Positions 4,031-21,387 of a stretch of DNA of 64,000 nt are shown piece by piece. The stretch lies in assembly GCA_016207065.1 (NCBI GenBank), contig JACQQK010000178.1, positions 5,740 through 69,739 on the forward strand, read 5' to 3'. Both the position numbers and the translations under genes were made by a program. The DNA is from Nitrospinota bacterium (GTDB lineage Bacteria > Nitrospinota > Nitrospinia > Nitrospinales > JACRGP01). Positions within the stretch are counted from its first letter, which is position 1. Each line of letters opens with the position of its first letter. Under the pieces are notes generated by a model. It saw only the letters and a program-made list of their open reading frames with translations, was not told the DNA's origin and made no database searches.

Positions 4031-4041
4031 ATGAGAACGTC

Positions 4042-4766
4042 ATGATTCAATTCCGATTGAAACCGGGGGAAACTCCAGGCAAGCTCATCGCGGCGGAGGG
4101 CTTGGACGGCTCGGGGAAGTCCACACAGATTTACCTCCTCAAACGCTGGCTCGAGCTCGAGGGACATAAAGTGGCGTTCACCGAGTGGAACTCGTCGGCC
4201 CTCGTCAAGGACGCGACCCGCAAAGGGAAAAAACGCCAGATCCTCACGCCGACCACGTTCTCGCTGATCCACGGAACGGACTTCGCCGACCGGTACGAAC
4301 GCCAGATCCTGCCGCTGTTGCGCGGCGGTTACATCGTTCTGGCCGACCGGTACATTTACACCTTGATGGCCCGGGACATTGTCCGCGGGGCCAACCCGGA
4401 CTGGATCAAGGAGGTATACAGCATCGCGATCGTCCCGGACGCCGTCTTCTACCTGTCGGCCCCCCCAGGACGCTTGCCGAGCGCAACCTGCGCAAGAATT
4501 CGGTCCTGGATTATTGGGAATCGGGGATGGACGTCCGCCGGTCGGGCGATATGTACGAATGCTTCATCCGGTACCAATCGCAACTGCAAAGGATTTTCCG
4601 CTGGATGCGGAAAATCTACGGGTTTCAGACCATCAACGGAGCCCGGATGATTCAGACCATTTCCTACGAACTTCAAGCCAGGATCCAGGGCATGCTGGCC
4701 TCCATTCCTGTTCAACCCCGTCCCGGCCAAAGCGAGACCATGATCGAAAAAAGAGAACAAGAATGA
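4042..4766 (+). pseudogene. Thymidylate-kinase-family P-loop kinase, frameshifted at a C7 run
   Basis: 'AAEGLDGSGKSTQ' P-loop and 'LADRYIYT' motif. The frame changes at the C7 run 4460-4466, and one extra C restores '...FYLSAPPRTLAERNLRKNSVLDYWESG...'. Confidence 0.6.
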
Positions 4767-5162
4767 CTAAAATCGACCCGAAACCAGCCTCGCCATCCAT
4801 AAAAGATCCGGCGAAACAACCGCGCGCGTCCGTAAAAACGCCGTCCGAACAAACGGTCTTGCGGCGGTATGGGGACGTTCTGATCAAATTAGAACGCCTG
4901 CGATCGGCGACCCGGGACTTGACCCGGGCCTACACCGCCAACCTCGAGCGCGACATCCTCGAAATCATGGACCTCGTTCGAAGCGTTAAGGCTCCGGAAC
5001 GACCGGAGAAAAAAAAACAACGCCTCCATAATTGAAAATATAACGGGGACCCTTGAAGAGCTTTCATTCAAACCCGAGAAAGGGCGGCGTAGCGATTTGA
5101 AAAAAATCGAAAAAACCGTCCAGGCGATGCGGCGGACTCTCTCCAAGGAAAAAATGGAATAA
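4763..5162 (+). pseudogene. Hypothetical protein, frameshifted at an A9 run
   Basis: ATG at 4763 overlaps the preceding stop. The frame changes at A9 (5009-5017), and A11 or A8 would join '...APERPEKKK' to 'IIENITGTLEELSFKPEKGRRSDLKKIEKTVQAMRRTLSKEKME*'. No family recognised. Confidence 0.35.
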
Positions 5163-5214
5163 CGCCCCCTCCCGCCAACATACCGTCGTTTTTTCATGGG
5201 GCGGGGCGAATAAG

Positions 5215-5243
5215 TTGATAACCCGGCGGATTTTATATATCAT
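5215..5243 (+). promoter_or_regulatory. Sigma70-type promoter candidate for the Mrp-like gene
   Basis: TTGATA (5215-5220), 17-nt spacer, TATCAT (5238-5243), about 57 nt upstream of the ATG at 5300. Confidence 0.4.
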
Positions 5244-5299
5244 GAATCATCCGGCTGAATTAACTCATATCGTTTCATTCCCATATAAGGAATCTTTCC

Positions 5300-6196
5300 A
5301 TGAAAACATACCATGACCTCGCGGGCGACGGGGGGTCGAATATCATCGCGCAGGTGGTTTCGCAGAGGGAGAAACTCCGGTCGCGCCTGGACAAAATCAA
5401 GCATAAGATCTCCCTGATGAGCGGCAAGGGCGGGGTCGGCAAAAGCTCCATCACGGCCAACATGGCCGCCTGCCTCGCGGACCGCGGCTACCGGGTAGGC
5501 ATCCTGGACGCCGACCTCAACGGGCCGAGCATCGGGCATCTCCTGGGCGTGGGCAACGACCGCAAACTCACGATCGACGAAAACGGCGTGGCCCCGGGCG
5601 TCGGCGCCATGGGGATCAAATTCATGTCCATGGACATGTTGCTACCCACCCCCGACTCCCCCGTCATGTGGACGGAAGAGGCCGGCGGGACCGCCGCCTG
5701 GGTCAGCACGATGGAGTCCACGGCCCTGCGGGAACTCTTGATGGACACTCAATGGGGCGAGTTGGACTATCTCCTGATCGACATGCCTCCGGGGAGCGAC
5801 CGCATCGACAACGTCCGCGACCTGATCCCGGAGCTGGAGGGAGTCGTGGAAATCACCATCCCCTCCCCCGTTTCCCAACACATCGTTTCCAAATCCATCA
5901 CCAAGAACAGCAAGATGGGCGTGCCCATCATCGGCCTGGTGGAAAACATGGCGACCTACGTCTGCCCGCATTGCGAACAGGAAGGCAAGCTGTTCGAGGG
6001 GGAAGACGTCCGGAAGCTCGCGCAGAGCAAGGAGATCCCCTTCATCGGCAAGATCCCCTTCGACACGCGCATATCCCGCAAGACGGCGTCGGGAACGTTG
6101 TTCTACGCCGAAAACAAGGAGTCGGTCACCGGCAAGGCCATCGCCGCCGCGGTCGACAACATCCTCAAATTCATCGATAAGAACTCGAAGAGGTAA
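5300..6196 (+). CDS. Mrp/NBP35-family P-loop ATPase (Fe-S cluster carrier-like)
   Basis: 'SGKGGVGKSSITANMAACLA', 'ILDADLNGPS', 'DYLLIDMPPG' and 'CPHCEQE' (CxxC) motifs. Confidence 0.85.
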   Translation: MKTYHDLAGDGGSNIIAQVVSQREKLRSRLDKIKHKISLMSGKGGVGKSSITANMAACLADRGYRVGILDADLNGPSIGHLLGVGNDRKLTIDENGVAPGVGAMGIKFMSMDMLLPTPDSPVMWTEEAGGTAAWVSTMESTALRELLMDTQWGELDYLLIDMPPGSDRIDNVRDLIPELEGVVEITIPSPVSQHIVSKSITKNSKMGVPIIGLVENMATYVCPHCEQEGKLFEGEDVRKLAQSKEIPFIGKIPFDTRISRKTASGTLFYAENKESVTGKAIAAAVDNILKFIDKNSKR

Positions 6197-6199
6197 ACA

Positions 6200-6637
6200 A
6201 TGAAATTTCTTTGCGTCCCCTGCGACGAACAGATGCAAACCCAAACCGACGGCATCATGCCGGCGGAAGCCAAGAATATATCCCTGAAGTTCAAATGCCC
6301 CAAGTGCAACCATACGATCGCCATGCTCACCAACCAGTTCGAGACGGAGTTCGTGAGCAAGATCGGCGTGGAACTGGGCGGTCAATCGGCGGTCGGCTCC
6401 GGCCCGTTGAGCATGGTCGGGTCGCAACTGGCCCAGGGCAAGGAAGAGTTGAAGCAGACCGTCATGAAGGACGAGGACTTCGAATGGACCGAGGAAGCCA
6501 AGGTCCGCATCGGCCGGGTCCCCTTCTTCGTCCGGAACATGGCGAAAAAAACCGTGATCGGCTTCGCGCGCGAACGGGGCATCAAGGTGATCGACGCGAA
6601 ACTGATGGACGAGGTGCGCGAAAAGGTGGGGATGTGA
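6200..6637 (+). CDS. Zinc-ribbon protein with C-terminal PCP-reductase-like domain
   Basis: N-terminal 'CVPCDEQ...CPKCNH' (4-Cys ribbon). The C-terminal 'WTEEAKVRIGRVPFFVRNMAKKTVIGFARERGIKVIDAKLMDEV' resembles the PCP_red domain pattern (recollection). Sits 4 nt after the Mrp-like gene. Confidence 0.55.
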   Translation: MKFLCVPCDEQMQTQTDGIMPAEAKNISLKFKCPKCNHTIAMLTNQFETEFVSKIGVELGGQSAVGSGPLSMVGSQLAQGKEELKQTVMKDEDFEWTEEAKVRIGRVPFFVRNMAKKTVIGFARERGIKVIDAKLMDEVREKVGM

Positions 6638-6665
6638 GCCCAACCTGAATGAACGGAAAACTCAA

Positions 6666-6708
6666 AGCGGCAAGCTCTCCCCGCGCAACTGCGCGAGAGC
6701 TTGCCGCT
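6666..6708. terminator. Strong hairpin between convergent genes
   Basis: A 14-bp stem, agcggcaagctctc (6666-6679) with gagagcttgccgct (6695-6708). T-rich sequence follows on both strands. Confidence 0.55.
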
Positions 6709-6752
6709 GTTTGCGGGGGAAAACATTAGCGTACCAATACGTTTTGGAATCG

Positions 6753-9700
6753 TTACTCCGCTTCCGAAATTATTTTCAATCCTTCAATCCAAACTTTCAT
6801 CTCTTTCCCCGCAATCTCCCCTTCCTTCAATTCCTTTTCCTGATGGGCAATATATGTATTGCGAAATTCGTTGATCCTCTCCACCAAGGCCAAAATATCT
6901 CTTCCCCCTTTGACTTGGAATCTTTTTCTTACGGCTTCAAAGACACCTCCGATTTTGGTTTTGTCGTTTAGGGCAAAATCCAAACAGGAGCGCAAAAGCC
7001 CAATGGGAGAAACCCCATTTTTAAAAACCAACGTCCGTTTGAGATTTTGCGCCAAGCCTTGGTAATACTTTTGCATCTTGAAGTCAACTTTGCCGTAGTA
7101 GGGTTCAAACCAGTCCTTTTGCGCTGGAATGTTTGTTGGCATTTCCGGGGAAAGACGGCGGTCTACCAAGCCGCGCGTGGCTTCATCCAATGAACCGAAA
7201 AGAGCGGTAAAGACGGGAGCAAAGTTCATTTCCTTGTTTTCGAAGAATTTAAACAAAGTTATCGCTTCTTCCGACGCTTTTTTGTACCGGGAGGGCAACG
7301 CCTTCAACATATCCGGGTCGATAAAATCCCCGGTTGCCGGGGCCTCTTCTTCCCAAACGATGGTCATTTGAGGGCCCTCGGTCTCTTTCAGCAAATCCTG
7401 CAAGGCCGGATTGCACGAGCGGGTCAACTCAGAAAGTTCCGCTCCCGTCAACCGCTCAAAAACGCCTTGTTGGACGTAAACATATTCCCATTGAATTTCC
7501 CCGGTCGAGGCGGAGCGGCACCAGGCGACAGCGGCGCGGGCTTTTAAAGGGACATCTCTATCCTCCCGGCCCTTGGTTTCTATCAAGTAGTAATTTCCAT
7601 CCTTATTCCGTGCAAAGAAATCCGGCGTATAGAAGGCCAGTCTTTTCCCATCTGTCAGATAGTCGATTCGGAGACATTGGGGGCCTTGATTTTTCGCGAA
7701 TGCTTTAATGTCGGGGGCGCGATCCAGAAACTGGGTCATCGCTACTTCCAATTCCCGGTTGCATGGAACAAGATTGAAAAGGGTCCTTGTCGCCCCAAGG
7801 GCCGGTCTTCGTTCATTGTGCGTGGCTGGATAGGGTTTCCAGTTGGCTAAAGATAGGCTGATTTTTTCCTTTTTCCTCGGCCCGGTTTTTATGGTCCGTT
7901 CGCGGATGAGCGGAACGAAAGTGGCGCGCACATGCTCGTGGACGTCCGAATCGGAAAGACGGGCAACCAAGTGGGGATCGTCTAAAGTGGTTCTCCGTTC
8001 AAAAAGAATTTCCTCCAGAAAAGTCTGTATCAAAGGCGCCAGCGTTTGGTGCGTTCCCCGGAGTTTGCAAACATGCTCCAACTCGGTCACGAAATAAGAC
8101 ACCGCCCCAAACCCGGATTCCAGGAGCGGCAAACGGATTCTCATTTTCTCGACGATCTCTCCGGTAAACAAGGCCCTGCCTTCGTATTCGATTTCAGTAT
8201 TCCCTTTCGCGCCCAACGGCAACGGTTTGAAACGCTTGAAAGCCTTCTTGACATCCTCCAAGGTCAAACCTTCCAGTTTTGGGACGGGCCTGTGCTCCGG
8301 CGTCAGGATGGGTATTTGAATGTCCAGCTTCTTTAAGTCTTTCTTGGGGTCGGGAAATATGGAAACCGTGGTCGAGGGAATTTTGTCGATGTCGATGATT
8401 TCCACTGGCAACCCCTCATGGGCCAGTTCCTGCTGATACAAACTGGAAAAGGCGGGATGCTCCACCACCGTCACCAGTTCATGCGCCTGGCCCGAAGGCG
8501 TCATGCGCCGCAATCCCCGCCCCAGGGTTTGCTCCGGTAAAATATTGGCCTTGGAACTGTACGGGCGAAGAGGAACGATGGTGGTGACATTCCGGACGTC
8601 CCAGCCTTCCCGCAACATCAATACGGAAACAATACAACGATGCGGACTGACGTTGGAATCGAGTTCCCGGCTTAACTTTCTAAGGGCCTTTAAATCCTCG
8701 TCGCTAATTTCTTTTTCGTCTTCGACAAATACCTGGCTTTTGCTTTGTCCCCGGCCAACGGTTTTGACTTTTCCTTTCAGGTTGGTGTGCAGATTGATGG
8801 TCTTTCCGTTCAATTCCTTAAATGCCTCGTCCGTATTCAGTCTTTGGGAAATTTCGTCCGCCGCCTGGGTGTCGTCGCACATCACAAAGAGCAGGGCCTT
8901 CTTGCCGCTTTTTTCCCATTCCTCCCGGCTGGCTTTCCAGCGCTCGTACCCGATCCGCAAATGTTGCTCGTATTTGTAGGCGGCGTTTGGGTCGGAGCGA
9001 TCAACCAGTTTGCCGCTCTTCCCGATCACGGGGGTCTTGACGATGCCGCCGTCCACCGCCTCTCCCAAAGGGGAGTCGCAAACGACATGTTTGAAAACGT
9101 TCCCGCAGTTGTCCTTTGGCGTGGCGCTGAAATCGAGTTGGGCGACCAAGCCGCCGCCGGTCCTTTTGCGGACGGCATCGTGCAAATACTTGATGGCCTC
9201 GTTCCAGGCGGAATCGGGATCCCAAACGTGGTGGGCCTCGTCGTTCAACACCATCAATTTTCGATGTCCGGTGATCCTGTCCCTCAAGGACGCGCCCGTG
9301 TCCAAAGCCTTGGCCTTGGAAACCGGCGGTCCCATCCAGGGGTAGGACTCGGCCTCTTTCTTTTCCTTGCGCTTGTTGGGATTGTACAGTCTATGGATAT
9401 TGGTCAAATAGAGGACTCCGCCCGTTGCCGCTCCTCCGGCCTCGTCCTGCAACACGACCGACAGATTCCAGTCGCCGCGCCATTCCGTCGGGACCAAGGG
9501 ATCCTCGTCGAAAATCTTTCCATTTCCGAAATCCTCCTTGAGCCGTTCGAATACGGTAAGGTTGGGGGCAATCATGACAAAATGCCGGGCCATCGGAGAG
9601 TCGGATTCGCGCAAGGAGTGAAAGTAGCTCCATACCACGGCGAGGCTCATCACCTTGGTTTTGCCGCTTCCCGTCGCCAACTTGAAAGCGTACCGGGTCC

Positions 9701-10139
9701 AGGCGTCTTCCTCCTCGGTTATGCCGAGGGCGAGGGTTTCCGCGTTGGCGCCGCCATAACCAGCGAAAATCTGGGACAGATATTCCAGCTTGCGGACCTC
9801 TTTCAAATAAATGAGCGTCTCAATGGCCTCGCGCTGGCAAAAGTAGTAGCGGAATTCGAATTCGTCTCCAGCGGGCGTTGTCCGGATGTGGCTCCGGCCA
9901 AACCAGTACTCCAAAAGATAACGGGTGGTGTCGCTGACCCCGAAATAGGAGGATTCCCGCCATTGCGAAACCTCCGCTCGCAAATTCTGAGCAATGACGA
10001 CGGGGGATTTCCGCCTGCCTTTAACAATTTTGGCGGGCGCACCCGGTTCTTCCGACCGTATGCGGTGGGCGTCCGGTTCCTCCCAGGATTTATACAACGG
10101 TTCCAACGCGCCGGGGTTGACGACGGGGCTGGCATTCAT
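6753..10139 (-). CDS. res: Type III restriction enzyme Res subunit (SF2 helicase + PD-(D/E)xK nuclease) with ~250-aa C-terminal extension
   Basis: '[11 protein letters not shown]' (Walker A), 'LNDEAHHVW' (DEAH) and a nuclease core '[23 protein letters not shown]'. The start at ATG 10139 (MNASP...) overlaps the mod stop as ATGA. The C-terminal extension ends in '[15 protein letters not shown]'. Confidence 0.85.
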
Positions 10140-12110
10140 ATCTTGATTTCCACCGTGATGCTGGTGTCGCACCCGAAAGTGTCCACCACCTTCACGCATG
10201 CCGTGTAAGTTCCCGGTTTTGGGAATGGGTGTTTTGCGTCAGAAATGGTTTTCAGATTCCGGTCCTTGCGGGTGCGGTAATGCTGCCAATGATGGTTGAA
10301 GGGCTTGCCCGGTTGCCATTCGAAATCCACCGCCCAGAAGTCGATGAAATCCATCCCGCTTTTGACGGCCCGCTCTTTGAGGGCAGAGAGCTCCTTGCTT
10401 GGAACTTCCGCTAAGGAAGGCAAAAATTTAGCGAGTTTGATTTCGGCGGTCCTGTCTTTTCCCTTTCCGGAATAAACGGGCGTGGCCTCCAATACGGCCA
10501 TTTCCAGAAAAGGCGGCGGGGAAGTCCTGTTCTTTTCCATGATCTCCCGCGGTATGGGGATCAATTTCATTTTGACGCCAAACTCCTTTTCCAGGGCTAC
10601 GGTGGTCAGGCGCAAATCCATTTCGAATTCCCAGGACAGACAATAAACTTCTTTTCCCCCGGCCTGGGCGACCGCTTCCGCGACCTCCCGCGCCTCCTCG
10701 CGGGTGAATATGGAGTCGATGCCGTCCACATGGCAAAAGGCCCCCGCCTTGCGCCCGTGGATAAGCGGGGACGGGGTTTTCGTCAAAACCTCGGCCTTGA
10801 AAAATTCCAGCACCACTCGGCGGTGCTCAGCGTCCGCCCCGTTGAGCCGGTCCTTTTGCCACCACTGCCGTTCGTAACGGCCCAGGTTGTAAACGTCGAA
10901 AGCCCGGTAGGATCTGCCTTCATCGTGGAGTTTACGTTGCAGGTCAATCAGCCGCTTGCGTGAGGTGTGGATAGCGAACCGCCCAAGATCGGACATGACC
11001 CAGCGTCTTCCCAGCCGTTCCGCCACGGCGCCGGTTGTCCCGCTACCGCAAAAGAAATCGGCGACCAAGTCGCCTTCGTTGGAAGAGGCTTTGATGATGC
11101 GTTCAAGGAGAGCTTCTGGCTTTTGGGTCGTGTATCCTACGTTTTCCAATACAGAAAAAGCATATGTTCCAACAGGATGATCATTAAAAATTTCAGCCAA
11201 ATCTGGTTTCCCCATCCACACGCTCCAAGCCGTTTGGGGACGTTCCAAACTTGCCAATTTAATGGCATCCTCTTTTGTTAAAGAGGAATCATTACATATA
11301 TATGTTTTTAAACAATTTGTTCCACCGCTTGTTTCTTTCCCGCGCGTATAAAACCAGCCATTTTTATCTTTTTGCAAGGCATTTGTGATTCTTGGGGAAT
11401 ATCCTAATCGGGGGGGGGGTAAATAGACTATTCTTGGACTTATAGCAAAGGATTGTTTCGTGAGATTTTGGGTAAAACTTTCCGCTACCCATCAGTCCGC
11501 AAACCCAAATAATTTCTGCAAAATCATGGTTTGGAAATATCTCGTTCAAAATAATCCGTAATTGAGAGGATTTCCGCCAATCGCAATGCACGTAGATACT
11601 TCCCGTTTCAGCGAGCAATTCTCGCATCAGCGCGAGCCGTTCATACATCATATGCAGGTAAGAGTCGGTTCCTTTTCCCCACATGTCCTGGTACGCCACC
11701 ATTTCGAGTGTGGACTGATCTTTTTCAACGGTTTCCTTGCCGTCGCCGATGGGGATATCCATTGTAAAATCCGCACCGACATCGAATGGGGGATCGATGT
11801 AGATCAAGTCGATTTTGCCCCTGAACTCCTTTAGCAGGGAGGCCATTACAAGTTTGTTGTCGCCCCAGATCAGCCGGTTGCGGAAATTGTCCGCATGGGC
11901 ATCCTTCGGATTGAACAGTTGTCCTTGAGCTTCCTTGCGACTTCGCGGCTCGTCGATGGTCTCGATTTTCTGCATGGGCAGAGCAGACCCGGCGATATCA
12001 ACTTCCCGGCGGTTGCCATAGCAGTCGTATTTCCCCTCCCAGACCAGTTCGGTTTTTAGAACGGACAACGGGTGGGGGTTGTCCGGGCCATGGACGGGTT
12101 TGGAGGTCAT
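10136..12110 (-). pseudogene. mod: Type III DNA methyltransferase Mod, split into two ORFs at a homopolymer tract
   Basis: The N-terminal ORF (11364-12110) has 'IDLIYIDPPF' (motif IV). The C-terminal ORF (10136-11377) has '[18 protein letters not shown]' (motif I). With 9 or 12 C on the coding strand instead of 10, the frames join as '...[28 protein letters not shown]...'. Confidence 0.85.
11410..11419. repeat. G10 (coding-strand C10) homopolymer inside mod
   Basis: Counted directly: atcctaatc-GGGGGGGGGG-taaatag. This is the site of the mod frame break. Confidence 0.95.
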
Positions 12111-12173
12111 GGATTTCCTTCTCGCGCTTTCATCAAGGTTCCAGTTGCAACGGCTTTCAATCTATTTCACCAT

Positions 12174-12353
12174 GTCTATATTGTCAATGGTTTCCAGAAG
12201 GAATACACGGGAGGCGATAAGGAGCGGGAAATTTATTTCCGCGCCGACAAGGCGCTGGACTACGGTTTCGTGGTGGACGTGTTCGCGGCCATCCGCAACG
12301 CGGGCATCCTGAACATCGGCATGGTCACGGATCCCGCCGGACGCGCCGGATAA
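12174..12353 (+). pseudogene. ExbD/TolR-family 3' remnant (no N-terminal TM segment); start approximate
   Basis: '...EREIYFRADKALDYGFVVDVFAAIRNAGILNIGMVTDP' matches the ExbD/TolR C-terminal pattern. It begins immediately right of the mod start with no membrane-anchor region. Confidence 0.55.
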
Positions 12354-12419
12354 AACCTCACGCGGCGGTTTTCTTTTTGCATTGCGGACACTCGCAGAGG
12401 TTCCGCAGGTATTCGTGGG
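12255..12419. repeat. 165-bp direct repeat, copy 1 (ExbD tail + intergenic + 3' end of DUF971 gene)
   Basis: Identical to 13188-13352 except 12388 (a) versus 13321 (g), which is synonymous in the DUF971 frame. Confidence 0.9.
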
Positions 12420-12427
12420 CGTCCAGC

Positions 12428-12490
12428 CGGGGAATCAGGGCGATCAACGCGAAACTGATGGACGAGGCGCGGGAAAAGACGGGGATGTAA
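12428..12490 (+). pseudogene. Diverged copy of the 3' end of the PCP_red-domain gene
   Basis: Encodes 'RGIRAINAKLMDEAREKTGM*' against 'RGIKVIDAKLMDEVREKVGM*' at 6575-6637. About 9 mismatches in 63 nt by eye alignment. Confidence 0.7.
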
Positions 12491-12552
12491 TCGTTAGCCA
12501 TTGACCGGCGGACCGAGAGACCCGTCCTGAAATTAGGCCGTCTTCCAAAAAC

Positions 12553-12813
12553 TCAATAGACGTGGCGGCGATGTTTCACCGTCAGGACAAAAACCGTTTT
12601 ACTCCCTTCCTCGATCTCGTAAACAATGCGCCAGTCGCCAACGCGCAACGAAAACTCTCCCGCATGATTTCCGACAAGAGGCTTTCCGGAGCGGGGGAAA
12701 TCGGCCAGCAATTCGATTTTTCGCAAGACCCTCCCAAACAAGCGACGGTCGGCCTGGGCCAGAGTTTTCTAATCGCCTTCCGCCTCGCGCGAAAGACGAA
12801 CGGCGTAACTCAC
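12553..12813 (-). pseudogene. RelE/ParE-family toxin with in-frame TAG at codon 15
   Basis: GTG 12813 overlaps the antitoxin stop (GTGA). Reads 'VSYAVRLSREAEGD*KTLAQADRRLFGRVLRKIELLADFPRSGKPL...LRVGDWRIVYEIEE...VFVLTVKHRRHVY', with TAG at 12769-12771. Confidence 0.7.
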
Positions 12814-13080
12814 CGGGGAGACGCTTTCTTTTTGAAATCCTCAAGCGATACCGTTTGGCCGCGCCGGACTTGTTTTTTGGCGCGGGCAATGGCGCGCGTT
12901 TCCTCCCGATGAGTTTGGATATCGAGGGTCTCGATCCAACCCTCGTATTCCTCCGCGCTCATAAGGACGGCCTTTTCCTCGCCGTTGCGCGTGATCACGA
13001 ACCGGTCGTATCCCTCCTCGACCTCCTTGACCAGGCGCGAAAGGCTTTTTTTGGCCTCGGACAACGGGCAGGTTCTACAT
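12810..13080 (-). CDS. Phd/YefM-family antitoxin (start uncertain)
   Basis: 'SEAKKSLSRLVKEVEEGYDRFVITRNGEEKAVLMSAEEYEGWIETLDI'. The SD 'aaggagg' precedes ATG 13080, but that ATG is out of frame by 1 nt (ATG-TAG). The ORF track begins at TTG 13064. Confidence 0.7.
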
Positions 13081-13106
13081 GGATGACCTCCTTCTCATTA
13101 GTCTAA

Positions 13107-13135
13107 ATTGTAGTCCGCGGGGGAAATGATGTCAA
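13107..13135 (-). promoter_or_regulatory. Near-consensus sigma70 promoter of the Phd/RelE cassette
   Basis: On the minus strand: TTGACA (13135-13130), 17 nt, TACAAT (13112-13107), followed by the SD aaggagg. Confidence 0.6.
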
Positions 13136-13187
13136 CGTGCCTCCTTATGTCAGAGCGTCTAACAAAATGATCCTCATGTCGCTCCGA

Positions 13188-13352
13188 CTGGACTACGGTT
13201 TCGTGGTGGACGTGTTCGCGGCCATCCGCAACGCGGGCATCCTGAACATCGGCATGGTCACGGATCCCGCCGGACGCGCCGGATAAAACCTCACGCGGCG
13301 GTTTTCTTTTTGCATTGCGGGCACTCGCAGAGGTTCCGCAGGTATTCGTGGG
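13188..13352. repeat. 165-bp direct repeat, copy 2
   Basis: See copy 1 at 12255-12419. This copy continues into the intact DUF971 gene. Confidence 0.9.
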
Positions 13353-13638
13353 TATACAGCCCGGTATCGTGCCCGTCGTTCCATTGGATCTGGACCGCGT
13401 ACAACCCGACGGAATGCAGTTTGACGGGGCGGATGGTGTCCGGGATGGAGCCGGGCGCGATGCGCTTCTCGCCGGTCCACTCGTCCACGCAGTGGGCGCA
13501 GGGGCATTTCTCCCGCAGGGTCTTGACGGCGTACACGGACTCGTGCCCGTCGTTCCAAGCTATCCCTAGCGTGGTGGCGTCCACCTGCCGGATGTTTTTC
13601 GGGGAGGGGCTTCGTGAATTGTCTTGGGTTATTGCCAT
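13291..13638 (-). CDS. DUF971 (gamma-butyrobetaine-hydroxylase-N-terminal-like) protein
   Basis: Duplicated 'WNDGHES.Y / WNDGHDTGLY' motifs and 'LRNLCECPQC'. Confidence 0.7.
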   Translation of the reverse strand: MAITQDNSRSPSPKNIRQVDATTLGIAWNDGHESVYAVKTLREKCPCAHCVDEWTGEKRIAPGSIPDTIRPVKLHSVGLYAVQIQWNDGHDTGLYTHEYLRNLCECPQCKKKTAA

Positions 13639-13708
13639 ATGCTCTTATGCTTTCCGTTTCCCGCGGAATCCGCGATGTGTCAACCGGGCTGTCCCGAGGA
13701 ACGCGATA

Positions 13709-13798
13709 CCCCCTTTAACAAAGGGGGCAAGGGGGATTTCATGCCTTGACGCCAGCAAAACCCTCAAATCCCCCCATCCCCCCTTTTTCAAAGGGGGG
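13709..13798. repeat. G/C-tract palindromic intergenic repeat cluster
   Basis: cccccttt-aaca-aaaggggg (13709-13727), gggggattt (13731-13739) paired with aaatccccc (13766-13775), and cccccc-tttttcaaa-gggggg (13778-13798). Confidence 0.8.
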
Positions 13799-13831
13799 CA
13801 TATGCTCCATGGATCCAGCGTCGCGCCGACG

Positions 13832-14926
13832 TCAGCTTTTCCAGGCCAGTTCGAACGTCGCGTCGACTTTTTCCTCTTTGGCTTGATTGATGCTCAGGCG
13901 GGCCGCCACCTGTCCCGCCAGGCTCCGGTAGGCTTCGCTGGCCGGGGAATCCGGATGGCTCAACAGGATGGGGACGCCGTTGTCGCCGCCTTCCACCACC
14001 TGGTTGAGGATCGGCACTTCTCCCAGGAACGGGACTTTGAACTGGTCGGCGAGGGTCTTACCGCCGCCGTGTTTGAAGATGTAATGTTTCTTACTGCATC
14101 CGTCGCAAATGAAATAGCTCATGTTCTCGACCACGCCCAGGATGGGCACTTTCACCTGCTCGAACATGCGCACGCCCTTCTCCGCGTCGATCAGGCTGAC
14201 TTCCTGCGGCGTGGTGACGATCACCCCGCCGGACAGCGGCGCCCGCTGGGTGAGGGTCAACTGCACGTCGCCCGTGCCCGGAGGCAGGTCGATGACCAGG
14301 TAGTCCAGTTCGCCCCATTCCACGTTGCCCAGAAATTGCTGGATGATCCCGCCCAGCATGGGTCCGCGCAACATCAAGGGTTGTCCTTCCTTGGTGAGGA
14401 ACCCGGCGGAGACCACCTTCATCCCGTGTTTTTCATGCGGGTAAAACTTGTTGTTGGCGCCGCCCATGGGAGGCGTGATGGGGATGCCGAGCATCTTGGG
14501 GATGCTGGGGCCGTAAATATCGGCGTCCATCAGCCCCACTTTCGCGCCGGTCAGACCCAGGGCAACGGCCAGATTGGCGCTGACGGTGGATTTGCCCACG
14601 CCGCCCTTGCCGCTGGCGACGGCAACGATGTTCTTGACCCCCGTGAGGATGGGTTGACTGTGTTGGGTGGGCCGGACGTTGGAGGTCATGTTCACCTCGA
14701 CGCGCCGGATGCCCTCGATGGCCTTCACCTTGCTCTGACACTCGTTGCGCAATTGCTCCTTCACCGGGCAGGCCGGGGTGGTGAGTTCCACGTCGAATGT
14801 TACGTTGCCGTCGTCGATCTTTATATTTTTCACAAACCCCAGGCTCACGATGTTCTTGTGCAAGTCGGGGTCCATCACGGTTTTTAACGTTTCCATTACT
14901 TTCGCTTCCAACTCTTGGTTAGCCAT
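13832..14926 (-). CDS. apbC: Fe-S cluster carrier ATPase ApbC/Mrp with N-terminal DUF59/MIP18 domain
   Basis: 'TLKTVMDPDLHKNIVSLGFV' (DUF59), 'ASGKGGVGKSTVSANLA', 'DADIYGPS', 'DYLVIDLPPGTGD' and 'CDGC'. Confidence 0.9.
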   Translation of the reverse strand: MANQELEAKVMETLKTVMDPDLHKNIVSLGFVKNIKIDDGNVTFDVELTTPACPVKEQLRNECQSKVKAIEGIRRVEVNMTSNVRPTQHSQPILTGVKNIVAVASGKGGVGKSTVSANLAVALGLTGAKVGLMDADIYGPSIPKMLGIPITPPMGGANNKFYPHEKHGMKVVSAGFLTKEGQPLMLRGPMLGGIIQQFLGNVEWGELDYLVIDLPPGTGDVQLTLTQRAPLSGGVIVTTPQEVSLIDAEKGVRMFEQVKVPILGVVENMSYFICDGCSKKHYIFKHGGGKTLADQFKVPFLGEVPILNQVVEGGDNGVPILLSHPDSPASEAYRSLAGQVAARLSINQAKEEKVDATFELAWKS

Positions 14927-15132
14927 AAAGCTCTCCCGGTTCTAATCGATCGGTTCAACAAACTCAATATTGGATGGCCGCAAAATCAAAAAGATTTAAA
15001 ACGATCCACTCAGCGGCGCTGTCCATAATCGTAATATTCCGGCTCTAAATCGTTTAGTCTGGAATTGCGTGACGAAAAGAAATAGCATTGCTCCCCCTTG
15101 CCGGGCTTGCCACGGCGTCGCCTTGGTGAGCC

Positions 15133-15187
15133 GGGGGGATTCCGCGAATAAAAGTTTCAAATCCCCCTACCCCCCTTGCAAGGGGGG
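15133..15187. repeat. G/C-tract palindromic intergenic repeat (same family and orientation as 13731-13798)
   Basis: ggggggatt (15133-15141), aaatccccc (15159-15167), and cccccctt-gc-aagggggg (15170-15187). Confidence 0.8.
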
Positions 15188-15609
15188 ATAAAGCAAAGGC
15201 GCTTTTTGTTTCCGGATTTTTTCCATTTTAAATCGTCCGGCTGGCGCCGATAAATCAAATTCCAAACCGGTTAAAATTAATCTATATATGGTATACAATT
15301 GATTTGTATATACCATATGAGGGTCTTTTGACTTTACAAAATGAAAAGCCTATGTTAAACAGCGCAATGTGGCGAGTCAGCGGCTGGCACGGCCCAACGC
15401 TTTTTCTCCCGCGCGCCAAAACGATTCGAGGCGCGTTTGATCGCGCCTCAAAACCATATATAAAGTTTAATGCTCCGCGCGTCAAGTCAATCGTTCAAAT
15501 TTACTCGACGGATTCAGTTTAAACCCTTTTTCATTCGCTTCCAACCTCCGTATCGTCTGGCGTAGCCGCCGGACAATACGGAAACAATCTCCAGAAAAGA
15601 AAATTCGAA

Positions 15610-17907
15610 ATGGCCAGGGAAAAAGCTTCCGATATTTGTCATGAACTGGAAAACCGTTTTCTCACCTACGCGCTGTCCACCATCGTTTCGCGCTCCCTGC
15701 CGGACGTGCGGGACGGCCTGAAACCGATCCACCGCCGGATCTTGTACGCCATGCACAGCCTGGGGCTTACCGCTGTCGCGAAGTACGTCAAATCGGCGAA
15801 GATCATCGGCGAGGTGCTCGGCAAATACCATCCGCACGGCGACGCGTCCACCTACGAGTCGATGGCCCGCATGGCGCAGGATTTTTCCATGCGCTACCCG
15901 CTGGTGGACGGCAAGGGGAACTTCGGCTCGGTCGACGGCGACGCGCCGGCGGCCTACCGCTACACCGAGGGCAAGACCACCTCCATTACCGCCTACCTGG
16001 TCAACGACCTCAACAAGGACACGGTGGACTTCCGCGCCAATTACGACAATACCCTGGAGGAGCCGGTCGTGTTCCCCGCGCGCCTGCCGAACCTGCTGGT
16101 CAACGGTTCGTCGGGCATCGCCGTGGGCATGGCGTGCTCCTTCCCCAGCCACAACCTGTCGGAAACGATCGCCGCGCTCGTCTCCATGATCGACGACCCG
16201 GAGCCGTCGGTCGCCAAACTACTCAAGCACATCAAAGGGCCGGACTTCCCGACGGGCGGGATCATCCTCAACTCCAAGGCGGAGTTGCGCAAAGCCTATG
16301 AAGAGGGGTCCGGGACGGTCAAAATCCGCGGGGAATGGGCGCTCGAGGAACTTCCCCGCGGCCGGTCGCAGATCGTGATCGCCTCCATTCCTTACGGGAT
16401 CAACAAGTCCAAGCTGATCGAGAAGATCGCCGAGATCATCATCGCCAAAAAACTTCCGCCGTTAACGGACGTGCGCGACGAAAGCGACGAGAACGTCCGC
16501 GTCGTCCTGGAAATCAAGACGGGCGCGGAACCGGAAAAGGTCATGGCCTACCTGTTCAAACATTCCGAGTTGGAAAGCGCCTTCCAGTTGAATTTCACCT
16601 GTCTCAAACCCAACGGCGAGCCCGCGCGGCTTTCCCTGCTGGAAATTTGCAGGTATTTCCTCGATTTCCGCAAGGAGACCGTCGTCCGCAAGCTGAACTA
16701 CGAGCTGTCCGTCATCCTCAAGCGGTTGCATATCCTCGAGGGATTCGCCGCCATCTTCTCCGCTCTGGACAAGGCGCTGAAGCTGATACGGACCTCCAAG
16801 TCCCGGCAGGAGGCGCACGGCAAACTCAGGGACGAGTTCGGCCTGGACGACGAGCAGACCTCCGCCATCCTGGAAATCCCCCTCTACCGGCTGGTGTCGA
16901 TGGAGATCGGCAAGATCATCGACGAAATGAACGAAAAGAACAAAGAGAAAAAAAGGATCCAGGAGATCCTGAAATCGCCGGCCAGGGTCTGGCAGGTCGT
17001 CAAGGAGGAACTTCTGGAGATCGACAAGAGCCACGGCGACAAGCGCCTGACCAAGATCAAGACCGTCGAGGCGCTGGAATACAACGCGGAGGACTTCATC
17101 GAGCACGAGGACGTGGTCGTCGTCCTCAGCAAAAACGGCTGGCTGAGGAAGTTCAAGACCGTCGCCGACCCCGCCGCGCTGAAGTTCAAGGAAAACGACG
17201 CCCTTTTGGGCATGGTCAAGGCCAACACCCGCGATTGCGTCGCGATCTTCACCTCGTTCGGGATGACGTACGTCACGCGGGCGCTCAACCTGCCCTACAC
17301 GCGCGGCGGGTTCGGCGACCCGGTGCAAAGCCTGTTCAAATTCGGCGACGGGGAAAAAGTGATCGCCATCTTCTCCCTGGCGCCGGGGGAAATCCTCGCC
17401 GCCTTGAAAGGGATCCCCGTCCCGCCCGCGGAGACCGGGACGGCGCAAAAAACCCTCGACTTCGGCGCGGAGGAGGAATTGCGCGACGCGGAGTTTCTGG
17501 CCGCCAGCGACACCGCTTACGGCTTCCGCTTCCCCCTGGCGAACCTCGGCGAAACCACGCGCTCCGGGAAAAAGATCATGTCGCTAAAAGACAACCAGCG
17601 CATGGCGGGCATCTCGCTGGTCGCGGGCGACCACGTTTTTCTGGCCTCCAGTAACGGCAAGGGCCTGCTCGTCCCACTCGACCAGATCGCCAAACTGACC
17701 GGCGCCGGGATGGGCGCGCGCCTGATGAAGCTGGCCGACGAGGCCACCCTCGCGGGGTTCAAATGCGTCGGGCTCAAGGACAAGGCCGCGCTGGCGTTCG
17801 ATGACGGAAGCCAGAAGGAGATTTCCATGAAGGACATCCCCGTCTACCAGAGAGGGAGCCAGGGCGTCATCGTCTCCAAGCGGAAAACCATCGTCAACGT
17901 ACTTTGA
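15610..17907 (+). CDS. Type IIA topoisomerase subunit A (GyrA/ParC family; size and absence of an obvious GyrA box favour ParC-like)
   Basis: 'LPDVRDGLKPIHRRILYAM', 'KYHPHGDASTYESMARMAQDFSMRYPLVDGKGNFGS' and 'AAYRYTE' (catalytic Tyr). 765 aa. Confidence 0.85.
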   Translation: MAREKASDICHELENRFLTYALSTIVSRSLPDVRDGLKPIHRRILYAMHSLGLTAVAKYVKSAKIIGEVLGKYHPHGDASTYESMARMAQDFSMRYPLVDGKGNFGSVDGDAPAAYRYTEGKTTSITAYLVNDLNKDTVDFRANYDNTLEEPVVFPARLPNLLVNGSSGIAVGMACSFPSHNLSETIAALVSMIDDPEPSVAKLLKHIKGPDFPTGGIILNSKAELRKAYEEGSGTVKIRGEWALEELPRGRSQIVIASIPYGINKSKLIEKIAEIIIAKKLPPLTDVRDESDENVRVVLEIKTGAEPEKVMAYLFKHSELESAFQLNFTCLKPNGEPARLSLLEICRYFLDFRKETVVRKLNYELSVILKRLHILEGFAAIFSALDKALKLIRTSKSRQEAHGKLRDEFGLDDEQTSAILEIPLYRLVSMEIGKIIDEMNEKNKEKKRIQEILKSPARVWQVVKEELLEIDKSHGDKRLTKIKTVEALEYNAEDFIEHEDVVVVLSKNGWLRKFKTVADPAALKFKENDALLGMVKANTRDCVAIFTSFGMTYVTRALNLPYTRGGFGDPVQSLFKFGDGEKVIAIFSLAPGEILAALKGIPVPPAETGTAQKTLDFGAEEELRDAEFLAASDTAYGFRFPLANLGETTRSGKKIMSLKDNQRMAGISLVAGDHVFLASSNGKGLLVPLDQIAKLTGAGMGARLMKLADEATLAGFKCVGLKDKAALAFDDGSQKEISMKDIPVYQRGSQGVIVSKRKTIVNVL

Positions 17908-17955
17908 CCTAGAGGGCATAACAAAATGAACCGATGGTCTGGACACACAAATGAC

Positions 17956-18183
17956 TCCCCTCCCTTGAGGGAGGGGGCTGGGGGAGGGGGCTGGGGGAGG
18001 GTGACCGGCGTGAACGCTGGTCCAACGCCGCCTCAGGCTGACGCTACGGGATGTAGCTCCCCCTTGCAAAGGGGGCCGGGAGGATTCGCATTTCGGCGAC
18101 CGCGTCAGCGTCATCGCCGCATTGCCTCCGGGCGCTTGCCCGGCTTTTCACCCCCACCCGACCTCCCCCATCAAGGGGGAGGG
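17956..18183. repeat. Cluster of G/C-tract palindromes and a short tandem repeat
   Basis: cccctccc-ttga-gggagggg (17956-17977), ggggctgggggag x2 (about 17973-17998), ccccctt-gca-aaggggg (18057-18075), and cctccccc-atca-agggggagg (18162-18183). Confidence 0.75.
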
Positions 18184-18225
18184 GATTATATGAAATTTCA
18201 TTTTATTACACGCTCTTAGGGAACC

Positions 18226-20118
18226 ATGGGAACGTATCAAGCGAAAGATATTCAATTACTGGAAGGGCTGGAACCAGTCCGGCGGCGTCCGGGAATGTAC
18301 ATCGGCTCGACCTCCACAACGGGACTGCACCACCTCGTGTGGGAAATCCTCGACAACTCGGTGGACGAAGCCCTCAACGGCCACTGCGACACCATCGAGA
18401 TCGAGATCGAGGCGGACAACGCGATCGCGATCAAGGACAACGGGCGCGGAGTCCCGGTGGACGAGTTCCGCAACAGCGGGAAAAGCGCCATGGAAATCCT
18501 GTTCACCACCCTGCACTCCGGCGGGAAGTTTGGCGACGACAATTACAAAGTCTCCGGCGGCCTGCACGGCGTGGGCATGGCGGTGGTGTGCGCCCTGTCC
18601 GAAACGCTGGTGGCCACGTCGCGGCGCGACGGGTTCGAGTGGACCCAGACCTACTCGCGCGGCAAGGCCGTCGGCAAAATCAACAAGGGCAAGCCGTCGC
18701 GCCATTACGGCACCACCGTCTACTTTAAACCCGACTCGCAGATTTTTCCCAAGGTCGAGTTGAATGTCAAATGGATCCTCGAACAGGCCGAAGCCAAGGC
18801 CTTCCTGCACAAGGGGCTCAAGATCGTCGTCCGGGAACGCGGTAGCGAGCACGTGTTCCAATACCCCGGCGGCATCAAGGACTACCTGAAGAAGATCGCG
18901 GCCGGCAAGCAGGTCCTCATGGAGGAGCCGGTGTACGTCGAGAAGGACGACCAGCGCCTGAAGTTGGAAGCCGCCTTCCTGTGGACCGCCGGGACGGACA
19001 CCGTCATCCACTCCTACGCCAACGCCATCAAGACCGCGGACGGCGGGACGCACGAAAACGGGTTCCGCAACGGCGTCACGCGGGCCATCCGCGCCTATAT
19101 CGAGCGCCGGAACCTGCTCTCCAAGGGGATCCCCGGCGTCACCAGCGACGATGTCAAGGAAGGGCTCGTGGCCATCGTCAGCGTCTACCTGTCGGGCGAG
19201 GTGGAATTCCAGGGGCAGACCAAGGGACGGCTGAACTCGGACATCACGTCGCAGGTGGAGTCGGTCGTCAAGCACTCGCTGGAGAACTTCCTGCACGAGC
19301 GCCAGACCGTCGGCGACCTCGTCGCCAACCGCGTGATCCTGTCGGCGCAGGCGCGCATCGCGTCACGGCAGGCGAAGGAGGCGGTGCACCGCAAGACCAA
19401 CATATCGCACCGGTTGAACCTGCCCGGCAAGCTGTCCGACTGCGCCTCGACCGACCGGGAGGAATCCGAGCTGTTCATCTGCGAAGGCGACTCTGCCGGA
19501 GGGTCCAGCAAGCAGGCCCGCGACCGCAAAACCCAGGCCATCCTGCCCATCCGCGGCAAAATCCTGAACGTCGAGACCGCGACCATGGACAAGATCCTGG
19601 CCAATACCGAGATCCAGAACATCATCTCCGCCACCGGGACCGGCATCCATCCCAAGTTCGACCATGACAAACTGCGGTACGGCAAGATCATCATCATGAC
19701 CGACGCCGACGTGGACGGCGCGCACATCTGCGCCCTGCTCCTGACGTTCTTCTACCGCTACATGCCGGAGCTCATCGAGAAGGGGAATTTATACATCGCC
19801 CAGCCGCCGCTCTACCGGATCGACTCCGGCAAGAACTGCTACTACGCCATCGACGACAAGGAAAAAGACTCCATACTGCAAAAACTGGACAACGCCAAAT
19901 ACGACATCGGCCGGTTCAAGGGACTGGGAGAGATGCCGCCGTCCGACCTCAAGGAGACCACCATGGACAAACGCTCGCGCTCGTTGATCCGCGTGGAAGT
20001 CGCCAGCCGGGAAAACGCCGACAAGACATTCGACCACCTCATGGGCAAGGACGCGCAAGCCCGCTTCCGCTTCATCCGCGAACGCGCCCCCCTCTTCCAG
20101 GAAGCGCTGGACGTGTAG
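18226..20118 (+). CDS. Type IIA topoisomerase subunit B (GyrB/ParE family)
   Basis: 'GLEPVRRRPGMYIGST', 'HHLVWEILDNSVDEA', 'LHGVG', 'ELFICEGDSAGGS' and 'IIIMTDADVDGAHI' (Toprim). 630 aa, stop TAG. Confidence 0.9.
   Translation: MGTYQAKDIQLLEGLEPVRRRPGMYIGSTSTTGLHHLVWEILDNSVDEALNGHCDTIEIEIEADNAIAIKDNGRGVPVDEFRNSGKSAMEILFTTLHSGGKFGDDNYKVSGGLHGVGMAVVCALSETLVATSRRDGFEWTQTYSRGKAVGKINKGKPSRHYGTTVYFKPDSQIFPKVELNVKWILEQAEAKAFLHKGLKIVVRERGSEHVFQYPGGIKDYLKKIAAGKQVLMEEPVYVEKDDQRLKLEAAFLWTAGTDTVIHSYANAIKTADGGTHENGFRNGVTRAIRAYIERRNLLSKGIPGVTSDDVKEGLVAIVSVYLSGEVEFQGQTKGRLNSDITSQVESVVKHSLENFLHERQTVGDLVANRVILSAQARIASRQAKEAVHRKTNISHRLNLPGKLSDCASTDREESELFICEGDSAGGSSKQARDRKTQAILPIRGKILNVETATMDKILANTEIQNIISATGTGIHPKFDHDKLRYGKIIIMTDADVDGAHICALLLTFFYRYMPELIEKGNLYIAQPPLYRIDSGKNCYYAIDDKEKDSILQKLDNAKYDIGRFKGLGEMPPSDLKETTMDKRSRSLIRVEVASRENADKTFDHLMGKDAQARFRFIRERAPLFQEALDV
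20076..20117. repeat. 42-bp direct repeat, copy 1 (3' end of the topoisomerase B gene)
   Basis: ccgcgaacgcgcccccctcttccaggaagcgctggacgtgta is identical at 20846-20887. The next base differs, giving TAG here and TAA there. Confidence 0.95.
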
Positions 20119-20157
20119 CCGTAGTAATGCGCCCTTAAACTTTACGAAACTGAGTTT

Positions 20158-20478
20158 ATGACCTTTAACGAAACGATCGATCTTGCCGTCCGGCGCATTG
20201 TAGAGGTTGCTCGTCCGGCGAAGGTCATCCTGTTTGGCTCCCGCGCGCGGGGCGACGAGGACAAAGGCTCCGATCTGGATTTAATGGTCATCGAAAACAG
20301 GGAACCCGATACCTACGAAGAAACGATCCGCCTTCGCAAGGCGGTAGGAAGCGTTGGCGTGGGCGTGGATATTCTGGTCTATTCGCAGGCCGAGTTCGAG
20401 CGGCGTAGCCAGGTGCCCGGAACGGTTCTTTACTGGGCAAGGAAGGAAGGCAAGGTCTTGTATGAAGCCGAACGTTGA
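20158..20478 (+). CDS. Minimal nucleotidyltransferase (MNT) domain protein, HEPN-MNT toxin-antitoxin-type
   Basis: 'ILFGSRARGDEDKGSDLDLMVI' (GSxxRG...DxD). Confidence 0.8.
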   Translation: MTFNETIDLAVRRIVEVARPAKVILFGSRARGDEDKGSDLDLMVIENREPDTYEETIRLRKAVGSVGVGVDILVYSQAEFERRSQVPGTVLYWARKEGKVLYEAER

Positions 20479-20844
20479 GGAGGCGCTACGGTCCTTACGC
20501 CTGGCAGACCGGGACATCAAGGCTTTCGACATCTTGATGAATTCCCCGGAAGCGCATTCGTCGGTGGTGTGTTTTCATGCCCAGCAAGCTGTCGAGAAGT
20601 CTTTAAAGGCCGTTTTATACCTGAACCTCATCGAATTCGAACGCACGCACGACCTCGTAAAACTCGCGGAACTGCTCCGGAATAACGGCTTCAGCCGCCG
20701 GTTTCGGACGATGAGTTCCACAAGCTTGCCCCCTTTGCCGTGACCTTCCGCTACGACGACAAGGAAACAGAGTCCCTGACAGGAGAAGAGGCCGGGCAGA
20801 TAATGATGGCCATCCGCCGTTGGGCGGGAAAGTTGCTTGAATGA
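20462..20844 (+). pseudogene. HEPN domain protein (partner of MNT), frameshifted near 20694-20697
   Basis: 'CFHAQQAVEKSLKAVL...ERTHDLVKLAELL' in one frame, and 'DDEFHKLAPFAVTFRYDDKE...AIRRWAGKLLE*' in the next. One added C (agccgccgg becoming agcccgccgg) joins them. The start overlaps the MNT 3' end. Confidence 0.7.
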
Positions 20845-20845
20845 C

Positions 20846-20887
20846 CCGCGAACGCGCCCCCCTCTTCCAGGAAGCGCTGGACGTGTA
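20846..20887. repeat. 42-bp direct repeat, copy 2
   Basis: Starts 2 nt after the HEPN stop (20842-20844). See 20076-20117. Confidence 0.95.
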
Positions 20888-20899
20888 AGAGGTCTGAAA

Positions 20900-21379: not shown

Positions 21380-21387
21380 AAAGGAAC

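Follow-up and report, generated by a model that had tools for sequence, protein, structure and literature searches.

Results and discussion

The gap between X and DUF971

In a Nitrospinota bacterium, the gap between two convergent genes, a PCP_red family gene (here called X) and a DUF971 gene, probably holds two cargo alleles of one hotspot arranged head to tail, with a 165-nt direct repeat as the scar of their recombination; we hold this reading with modest confidence. The gap lies in a 64,000-nt stretch of a metagenome-assembled genome (MAG; GenBank assembly GCA_016207065.1, contig JACQQK010000178.1, positions 5,740 to 69,739 of the forward strand), which was analyzed as a whole and is referred to below as the window; coordinates are those of the window (Table 1). 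One cargo is a type III restriction-modification (RM) module, consisting of the genes res and mod, and the other is a small toxin-antitoxin (TA) pair of the Phd/ParE type. The order in the window is X a [v R e1] b d / a' [s T u] b d DUF971. In this notation, a is the tail of X and a' a second, decayed copy of it, R is res plus mod, e1 is the part of a long ExbD/TolR remnant that precedes the repeat (12174-12254), b is the 165-nt repeat, d is the next ~9 nt of DUF971, T is ParE, Phd and their promoter, and v, s and u are the remaining segments. The RM allele, Q, comprises v, res, mod and the long ExbD remnant, and the TA side, P, comprises s, ParE, Phd, the promoter and u. The arrangement is symmetrical in that the TA unit lies between the two copies of b and the RM unit between a and a'.

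Table 1. Features of the X-DUF971 gap and of the second cassette, in window coordinates
Feature	Position	Strand	Basis or remark
PCP_red family gene (X), left flank of the hotspot	6200..6637	+	Pfam PF08369, E=3e-14
Spacer v with a strong hairpin, from the X stop to res	6638..6747	.	First 88 nt unmatched among the fetched sequences
Type III restriction enzyme gene (res)	6753..10199	-	Pfam ResIII E=2e-14; PADLOC REase_III E=7e-23
Type III methyltransferase gene (mod)	10136..12110	-	Two open reading frames, 11364-12110 and 10136-11377
ExbD/TolR C-terminal remnant, long version (pseudogene fragment)	12174..12353	+	Last 99 nt within repeat copy 1
Direct repeat copy 1 (b)	12255..12419	.	Repeat search, alignment
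DUF971 3' fragment	12358..12431	-	62 nt within the repeat plus ~9-12 diverged nt
X' tail, decayed copy of the last 20 codons and stop of the PCP_red gene	12428..12490	+	87% to 6575-6635
Spacer s	12491..12549	.	Follows the PCP_red stop in L001 (94% over 53 nt) and L087 (diverged, indels)
ParE/RelE-family toxin pseudogene	12553..12813	-	PF05016, E=1e-14 over the whole model
Phd/YefM antitoxin gene remnant	12810..13080	-	PF02604, E=6e-18, 64.8 bits (cut-off 29.8)
Sigma-70-type promoter-like site, TTGACA-17-TACAAT	13107..13135	-	11/12 matches; kept in L087
Segment u, 44 nt, from the TA promoter region to repeat copy 2	13144..13187	.	No match among the fetched sequences
Direct repeat copy 2 (b)	13188..13352	.	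Comprises a short ExbD remnant (13188-13286) and the end of the intact DUF971 gene (3' side)
Intact DUF971 gene (GBBH-like_N; PF06155), right flank, 115 aa	13291..13638	-	Pfam E=6e-27
Topoisomerase IV B tail, MNT-HEPN and second tail copy	20076..20887	+	Exact 42-nt repeat

A direct repeat built from two gene tails

A repeat search of the whole window returned only two local direct repeats of at least 40 nt, the 165-nt pair and a 42-nt pair at 20076/20846. The copies of the longer repeat differ only at 12388 (a) and 13321 (g), the third position of a DUF971 cysteine codon (TGT/TGC), so that the difference is synonymous; chance is excluded as the source of this repeat. The search hit itself runs further, to 12255-12431 / 13188-13364 (177 nt at 97%), but the copies diverge beyond 12419 and the alignment of the extension to 12431/13364 is weak, with several mismatches. 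Each copy begins with a 99-nt C-terminal remnant of an ExbD/TolR gene, which 4 nt separate from the final 62 nt of DUF971, the convergent gene. The left copy extends leftward into the longer ExbD remnant from ~12174, and the right copy starts abruptly at 13188 and is the only one of the two to continue into an intact DUF971 gene. The original prediction, made from the letters of the DNA alone, had described the two copies in the same way, down to the synonymous base, the ExbD-like tail and spacer, and the one-sided DUF971 gene, and both Pfam and the alignment agree with it.

The assignment of the remnant to ExbD rests on a sub-threshold Pfam hit (E=4e-5, 24.1 bits, under the cut-off of 25.4, model positions 83-127 of 128) together with its relatives. 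An all-against-all HMMER comparison connects it to 142 further proteins, the best match being 56% identical; in each of the six that were scanned (128-154 aa), Pfam ExbD matches at the C-terminal end or close to it, and five of the matches are strong (E 1e-23 to 1e-33). No close full-length homologue was found, a word-index search returning the query alone. The long remnant is also present, at 95%, in the relative L001, and is absent from the relatives with an empty site described below. The DUF971 protein is nearest to Nitrospinota proteins and is 99% identical to P0001.

An inactivated Phd/ParE pair

The interval between the repeat copies (12420-13187, 768 bp) carries an antitoxin gene followed directly by a toxin gene, the two overlapping by 4 nt at 12810-12813. 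Both belong to families of type II TA modules, a Phd/YefM domain and, downstream of it, a ParE/RelE domain, and neither frame is intact. In the toxin, codon 15 is an in-frame TAG (12769-12771), where the relative L087 has TTA (Leu). The antitoxin has suffered a 2-nt deletion relative to L087 (ATG CGT AGA to ATG TAG) just after the native ATG at 13080-13078; the remaining open reading frame (ORF), 12810-13064, could encode 84 aa from an internal TTG at 13064 that has no ribosome-binding site of its own. Judged by these lesions, both genes are dead in the window: a nonsense codon interrupts the toxin, and the antitoxin no longer has its start codon. In L087 both are intact (Phd 90 aa, ParE 86 aa). 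A degenerate Phd/RelE cassette with a near-consensus promoter is also what had been predicted for this interval, and the Pfam hits, the TAG codon and the promoter match bear it out.

The TA coding sequence of the window is 94.5% identical to that of L087, and the 3' end of res, which L087 also carries, is 94.4% identical. The equal divergence indicates that both modules share one population history, and a distant donor for the cassette was ruled out, since the identity of the TA pair to L087 equals that of res. The cluster to which Phd belongs has just one other member, and this is located at the same hotspot.

In the RM module on the left side of the island, the mod gene is split at a G10 tract (11411-11420), its two ORFs matching positions 6-229 and 287-613 of the 616 positions of the PADLOC MTase_III model PDLC03633. 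The tract is identical in L172, an independent Logan contig, in which res is also 100% identical. With its G10 tract, mod is a candidate phase-variable gene in a Nitrospinota genome. Apart from the type III RM genes, PADLOC recognized nothing but MNT-like models in this region.

A hypervariable gap in Nitrospinales

X and DUF971 are convergent neighbors in 54 Nitrospinales loci from genome and metagenome collections, and the gap between them varies from 8 nt to 9.4 kb. In the loci of the genome collection (L007-L022) the surrounding order is parE<-parC<- Mrp->DUF971-> <-X<-ParA-like. In L011 (10321-12240), for instance, the gap is occupied by one PIN-like and one DUF4258-like ORF, the latter with a small partner downstream, and by one more small ORF, calls that are based on N-terminal motifs only. 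The X-DUF971 gap is a hypervariable accessory-gene hotspot in Nitrospinales. Scans of genome and metagenome contigs yielded no strain-level relative, the best matches being 72% and 85% identical at the amino acid level.

Four strain-level relatives show which alleles the gap has in this population. L088 and L089, whose X and DUF971 segments have 92-95% nucleotide identity to the window, are empty: the X stop is followed by 51 nt with a hairpin and then by the DUF971 stop, with no ExbD remnant. In L001 (95-98%), X is followed by the spacer s, by 344 nt from the 5' end of mod and by the long ExbD remnant, ahead of DUF971. L001 carries b once, in a copy 97% identical, and has no TA pair; the rest of its island differs, so that it is not a clean empty site. 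The original prediction had proposed that related genomes be compared for empty sites, and these relatives supply both a fully empty gap and the repeat sequence in single copy. L087 has the tail of X (50/50 identical to a), a diverged spacer, the intact ParE-Phd pair, the promoter and 408 nt of the 3' end of res. The last ~22 nt of v in the window seem, by eye, to align with the joint between the Phd promoter and res in L087. On the reverse complement of L087 (~720-1812), the last 408 nt of res form a 129-aa ORF joined to an unrelated 223-aa ORF; this joint is another variant of decay or replacement of the island.

In these relatives, the TA module has its native place directly downstream of X and to the left of the RM module. 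X, spacer and TA pair are adjacent in L087, and X and s are adjacent in L001, from which it follows that a'-s-TA in the window is a displaced copy of the left edge of the island.

The displaced tail of X and the novel joint

The displaced edge begins with a piece of X itself. The source of 12428-12488 is the last 61 nt of X (6575-6635), with 8/61 differences. The C-terminal motif IDxKLMDEVREKVGM is nearly invariant in ~80 Nitrospinales orthologues (64-98% identity), and the X' tail has D to N, V to A and V to T changes at motif positions. That X' is the tail of a working orthologue was rejected, since residues invariant in these ~80 proteins are changed. The fragment at 12428-12490 had originally been described as a piece of a third gene. 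It is indeed a fragment, but of the PCP_red gene that borders the same gap rather than of an unrelated gene. The notion of a free-standing cassette fares less well, because its left end (the PCP_red tail copy and the spacer) reproduces the native adjacency of PCP_red, spacer and ParE/Phd in L087 and L001.

At 12420-12431 the DUF971 tail is fused to the X tail in a novel joint, with a 'cgg' microhomology at ~12428-12431. The right end of the interval is in this way joined to its left end, as is expected of a tandem duplication or a Campbell-type integration. As a further consequence of the arrangement, the RM unit, the ExbD remnant and the DUF971 tail are bracketed by the a/a' direct repeats (61 nt, 87%), which are 5.85 kb apart and span the PCP_red stop codon.

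A proposed history of stacking

The joint between the DUF971 tail and the X tail would be the signature either of a tandem duplication of the island or of a single-crossover (Campbell-type) integration of a circularized allele fragment. In the Campbell route, a circularized a-P-b-d or Q-b-d-a would have entered the other allele by a single crossover; in the tandem route, the island would have been duplicated and its copies would then have undergone differential loss. The 165-nt repeat would be a by-product, a 'long target duplication' that spans a stop codon, and DUF971 remains intact for that reason. Homologous recombination by the host and one illegitimate joint at the level of microhomology would suffice for such a history, with no dedicated recombinase. 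Afterwards, both TA genes would have been lost to point lesions and the redundant X' tail would have decayed, while gene conversion probably preserved the near-identity of the copies of b. RecA-type deletion of either module would be possible at the repeats, and excision through them is plausible.

Five observations weigh against this history. First, one-step models make a/a' and b/b together, yet the divergence of the two pairs differs: b differs at 1/165 positions and d plus a' at 10/70 (Fisher p=3e-5), so that the repeat pairs do not look equally old. Their unequal divergence calls for gene conversion of b, mutagenic synthesis at the joint, or a two-step history. The sharp change at 12419/12420 could reflect a conversion tract that stopped short of the end of homology, or error-prone synthesis at the joint. 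Second, the TA pair lies to the left of the RM module in L087 and to its right in the window. The opposite order implies at least one further deletion in one lineage; for the order in L087 to arise, either the crossover must have had its other outcome, with the internal tails deleted afterwards, or the history must have been different. Third, the copies are unequal in content, and a simple tandem duplication needs two extra deletions. We regard that version as less likely, because both deletions must share the u/v breakpoint. Fourth, the joint of the DUF971 and X' tails was found in no second assembly in a collection of 15 billion proteins. The 47-aa joint ORF is annotated only in the window's own MAG (MBI4384971.1), as is the Phd ORF, and exact look-ups of Phd, DUF971 and X gave no record. 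Fifth, gene-tail duplication was found at none of 43 more distant loci with insertions in the gap, which leads us to reject it as a general feature of the hotspot and indicates that stacking by such a route is not general.

The possibility of an assembly artefact

The arrangement could instead be a product of assembly, if the contig merged co-occurring strains (one with the RM allele, one with the TA allele) or turned a loop of the assembly graph into linear sequence. In the source MAG, Phd, DUF971, PCP_red, MNT and other proteins of the window (MBI4384966-80) share one 99,057-nt contig. The MAG is probably from the project PRJNA640378, a link drawn from relatives with neighboring accession numbers (JACQQL01); this project covers Northern California groundwater and used 150-bp paired-end reads, MEGAHIT and scaffolding with IDBA-UD (PMC7906910). 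The 165-nt repeat is longer than the read length and than the largest k, and the relatives with other alleles derive from sister runs. The Logan contig L172 (SRR12113385, k=31) is 100% identical to 6606-12284, and its start 30 nt before base 6636, ahead of the X stop, reveals a second allele after X in that sample (TGA versus TAA) and hence mixed strains.

Other features of the same data argue against a chimera. The diverged joint at 12420-12488 and the joint of u to b must both exist in reads and are linked by unique sequence, which implies that b flanks the cassette on both sides in some molecule. The changes at residues invariant in ~80 orthologues show that a' is not the X tail of a co-occurring strain. 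Judging from the sequence, the single-nucleotide polymorphism at offset 133 of the repeat makes the copies resolvable with 141-mers. At its other end, L172 stops exactly 30 nt into b, at the repeat boundary and not at a strain polymorphism, as would happen if a second predecessor of b at 12254/12255, the u/b joint, caused a branch. In addition, the analogous 42-nt duplication occurs in two independent assemblies. Taken together, these points make an artefact very unlikely, in our estimation.

A second cassette at 20.1 kb

The 42-nt repeat brackets a second TA cassette. The topoisomerase IV B gene ends at 20118, and its last 42 nt (20076-20117, including the TA of the stop) recur exactly at 20846-20887, directly after HEPN. 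The MNT gene between the copies (20158-20478) is intact, and HEPN (20462-20844) is frameshifted by a 1-nt deletion near 20690. In the relative L170 (JACQQL010000004.1), the MNT-HEPN-tail block is kept at 90%, with a tail copy matching at 33/35 positions and a decayed 5' part. A second MNT/HepT pair lies there between parE and the block, and past the tail copy L170 and the window have unrelated sequences. The recurrence in an independently assembled genome indicates that the 42-nt duplication is real and predates the split of the window strain and L170. The 42/42 match between the tails in the window points to gene conversion in its lineage. The parallel between the two cassettes that was part of the original prediction is borne out, both repeats bracketing dead TA cassettes of ~0.75 kb and spanning the stop of a conserved gene.

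The region downstream of topoisomerase IV B (20119 to ~24000) is a second accessory hotspot. In the window it contains MNT-HEPN, a SnoaL-like gene (20900-21379), DUF4258 (21388-21693) and an AAA_21 ATPase with DUF4276 (22227-23989). The corresponding region of L170 (738-2400) has MNT/HepT and MNT/HEPN, and in L002 an FGE-sulfatase gene directly follows parE.

A possible dedicated route for cassettes

The two repeats invite a different explanation, namely that the small TA modules of this genome are separate cassettes with a common route of entry at gene 3' ends, where they cause long target duplication, and of exit through the repeats, with the X' tail as baggage from an earlier site. There are only two long local repeats in 64 kb, and each does enclose a TA cassette (~0.73-0.77 kb) where a conserved gene has its stop; the MNT-HEPN-tail block is common to two MAGs with differing sequence on either side. 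The copies of b are near-identical and a' is old, as if a' were old baggage and the duplication of b recent, and L001 carries b once, without TA. The supposed baggage, however, is the tail of a gene that natively adjoins the same TA module in relatives, so its source is the same locus. Of the final ~9 nt of the DUF971 fragment, 2 have already changed, a poor fit to a clean recent duplication. Searches revealed neither conserved end sequences nor inverted repeats, and no recombinase among the ORFs scanned; the one other member of the Phd cluster sits at the same hotspot, and the 43 other occupied gaps are free of tail duplication. We consider the cassette route unlikely. A shared insertion and excision route for TA modules, as originally proposed, is not demonstrated by these data, given the lack of a recombinase or conserved ends and of duplications in the distant gaps.

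Site-specific recombination would be another source of repeats at gene ends, the 165-nt copies then being attL and attR of an integrase islet, the boundary of an integron or the ends of a Xer-dependent element. Duplication of the 3' end of the target gene is common among integrative elements, a point also discussed in PMC2853133. Several observations speak against this source. The ORFs scanned around both cassettes, including those within the 768 bp, have no integrase, transposase or other recombinase domain; 1-30000 contains no tRNA or tmRNA, and 5000-22000 no Rfam family. Terminal inverted repeats are absent, a search of the ends for inverted repeats of at least 12 nt being negative, and nothing resembles attC. 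The left copy of b runs, at its right end, into a fragment of the opposite flank gene and not into the end of an element, and the two repeats differ in length (165 and 42 nt) and share no sequence. We regard site-specific recombination as extremely improbable. The same observations separate the cassettes from other mobile classes. A DNA transposon or miniature inverted-repeat transposable element would have terminal inverted repeats, and the duplications here are 165 and 42 nt. Integron cassettes would have attC-type repeats and an IntI, which the scanned ORFs lack, and the repeats are coding tails of resident genes. An integrase island would bring a recombinase gene within the element and a tRNA or tmRNA, or else a defined att core.

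A more far-reaching idea, which we consider decidedly unlikely, is that in this Nitrospinota lineage addiction modules (TA and RM) travel as integrase-free cassettes that carry a host gene 3' end as a portable homology arm. If so, a circle would integrate by a single RecA crossover at a stop codon and leave the gene unharmed, modules would stack beside one another and leave by the reverse reaction, and this would amount to a general life cycle free of recombinases. Kobayashi's group proposed such a life cycle for RM systems, where it was never demonstrated.

Other features of the neighborhood

Further variation is found outside the X-DUF971 gap. A segment at ~2411-5196 is absent from L088 and L171, in which a pseudouridine synthase gene adjoins the ParA-like gene. 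In the window it carries HD/Ppx-GppA-like ORFs (3539-4030) and a thymidylate-kinase-like P-loop gene (4042-4650), and G+C content dips to 0.386 at its edge (2001-2500). Palindromic elements of the repetitive extragenic palindromic (REP)-like kind, CCCCCTTTnnCAAAGGGGG with GGGGGATTT, occur at 13706-13797 and 15143-15175; they are intergenic and are also present in L001 and L170.

Comparison with known systems

The TA pair itself is no new system. It resembles Phd/YefM-ParE/RelE type II modules in gene order, in the 4-nt overlap, in its PF02604 and PF05016 hits and in the promoter-like site upstream, and differs in that both genes are inactivated in the window; the version in L087 is intact. It is an ordinary Phd/ParE module that has been inactivated. 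TA cassettes of chromosomal superintegrons are likewise modules of ~0.7 kb bounded by repeats within arrays of accessory genes. The window repeats, in contrast, are conserved gene tails and not attC sites, and inverted repeats are lacking, as is an IntI in the scanned ORFs.

Campbell-type integration and tandem-duplication joints are known from insertion-duplication constructs and from merodiploids generated by transformation. The window agrees with them in the order a-Q-b / a'-P-b, in the novel right-to-left joint, in having repeats of host sequence and in that homologous recombination could reverse the event. It departs from them in that the copies differ in cargo and the repeat pairs in apparent age, and the intermediate, a circle or an unequal sister exchange, is one that we infer.

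How small chromosomal TA modules move without mobility genes is poorly understood. Of particular value here is that an empty site, single-module alleles and a stacked allele can be read in one population. Ordinary host recombination at conserved flanking gene tails can probably add modules and leave the flanking genes intact, and the proposed history makes a testable prediction, namely circles or deletions through the repeats.

The closest known class is the long target duplication of RM genes (Nobusato et al. 2000, Gene 259:99; Furuta, Abe and Kobayashi 2010, PMC2853133). In that work, RM systems were found inserted with target duplications of 30-420 bp and without mobility genes, often across start or stop sites and with the target left intact (PMC2853133). 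The features by which Furuta et al. 2010 defined such insertions are largely present in the window: repeats longer than 30 bp (165 and 42 nt), a single copy in a relative (L001), no linked mobility genes and an insert shorter than 20 kb (768 bp). R and M homologues inside the insert are not, the cargo being Phd/ParE. Published reports of long target duplication for TA modules were not found, our search returning only papers that cite the RM work. The window differs from that class in that a type II TA pair takes the place of R and M genes as cargo, that a tail from the gene on the opposite flank is part of the insert, which points to a head-to-tail join of two alleles, and that one repeat copy has a diverged end. 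Both the window and the RM class involve an addiction-type module of at most a few kb and repeats that far exceed the target duplications of transposons; in both the repeat is single-copy in an insert-free relative, no integrase or transposase is present, and a stop codon is spanned. In addition, an RM island occupies the same slot here, bracketed by the 61-nt a/a' repeats. The window broadens the pattern of long target duplication, known from RM systems, to include TA pairs as well as an uncultured phylum of nitrite oxidizers.

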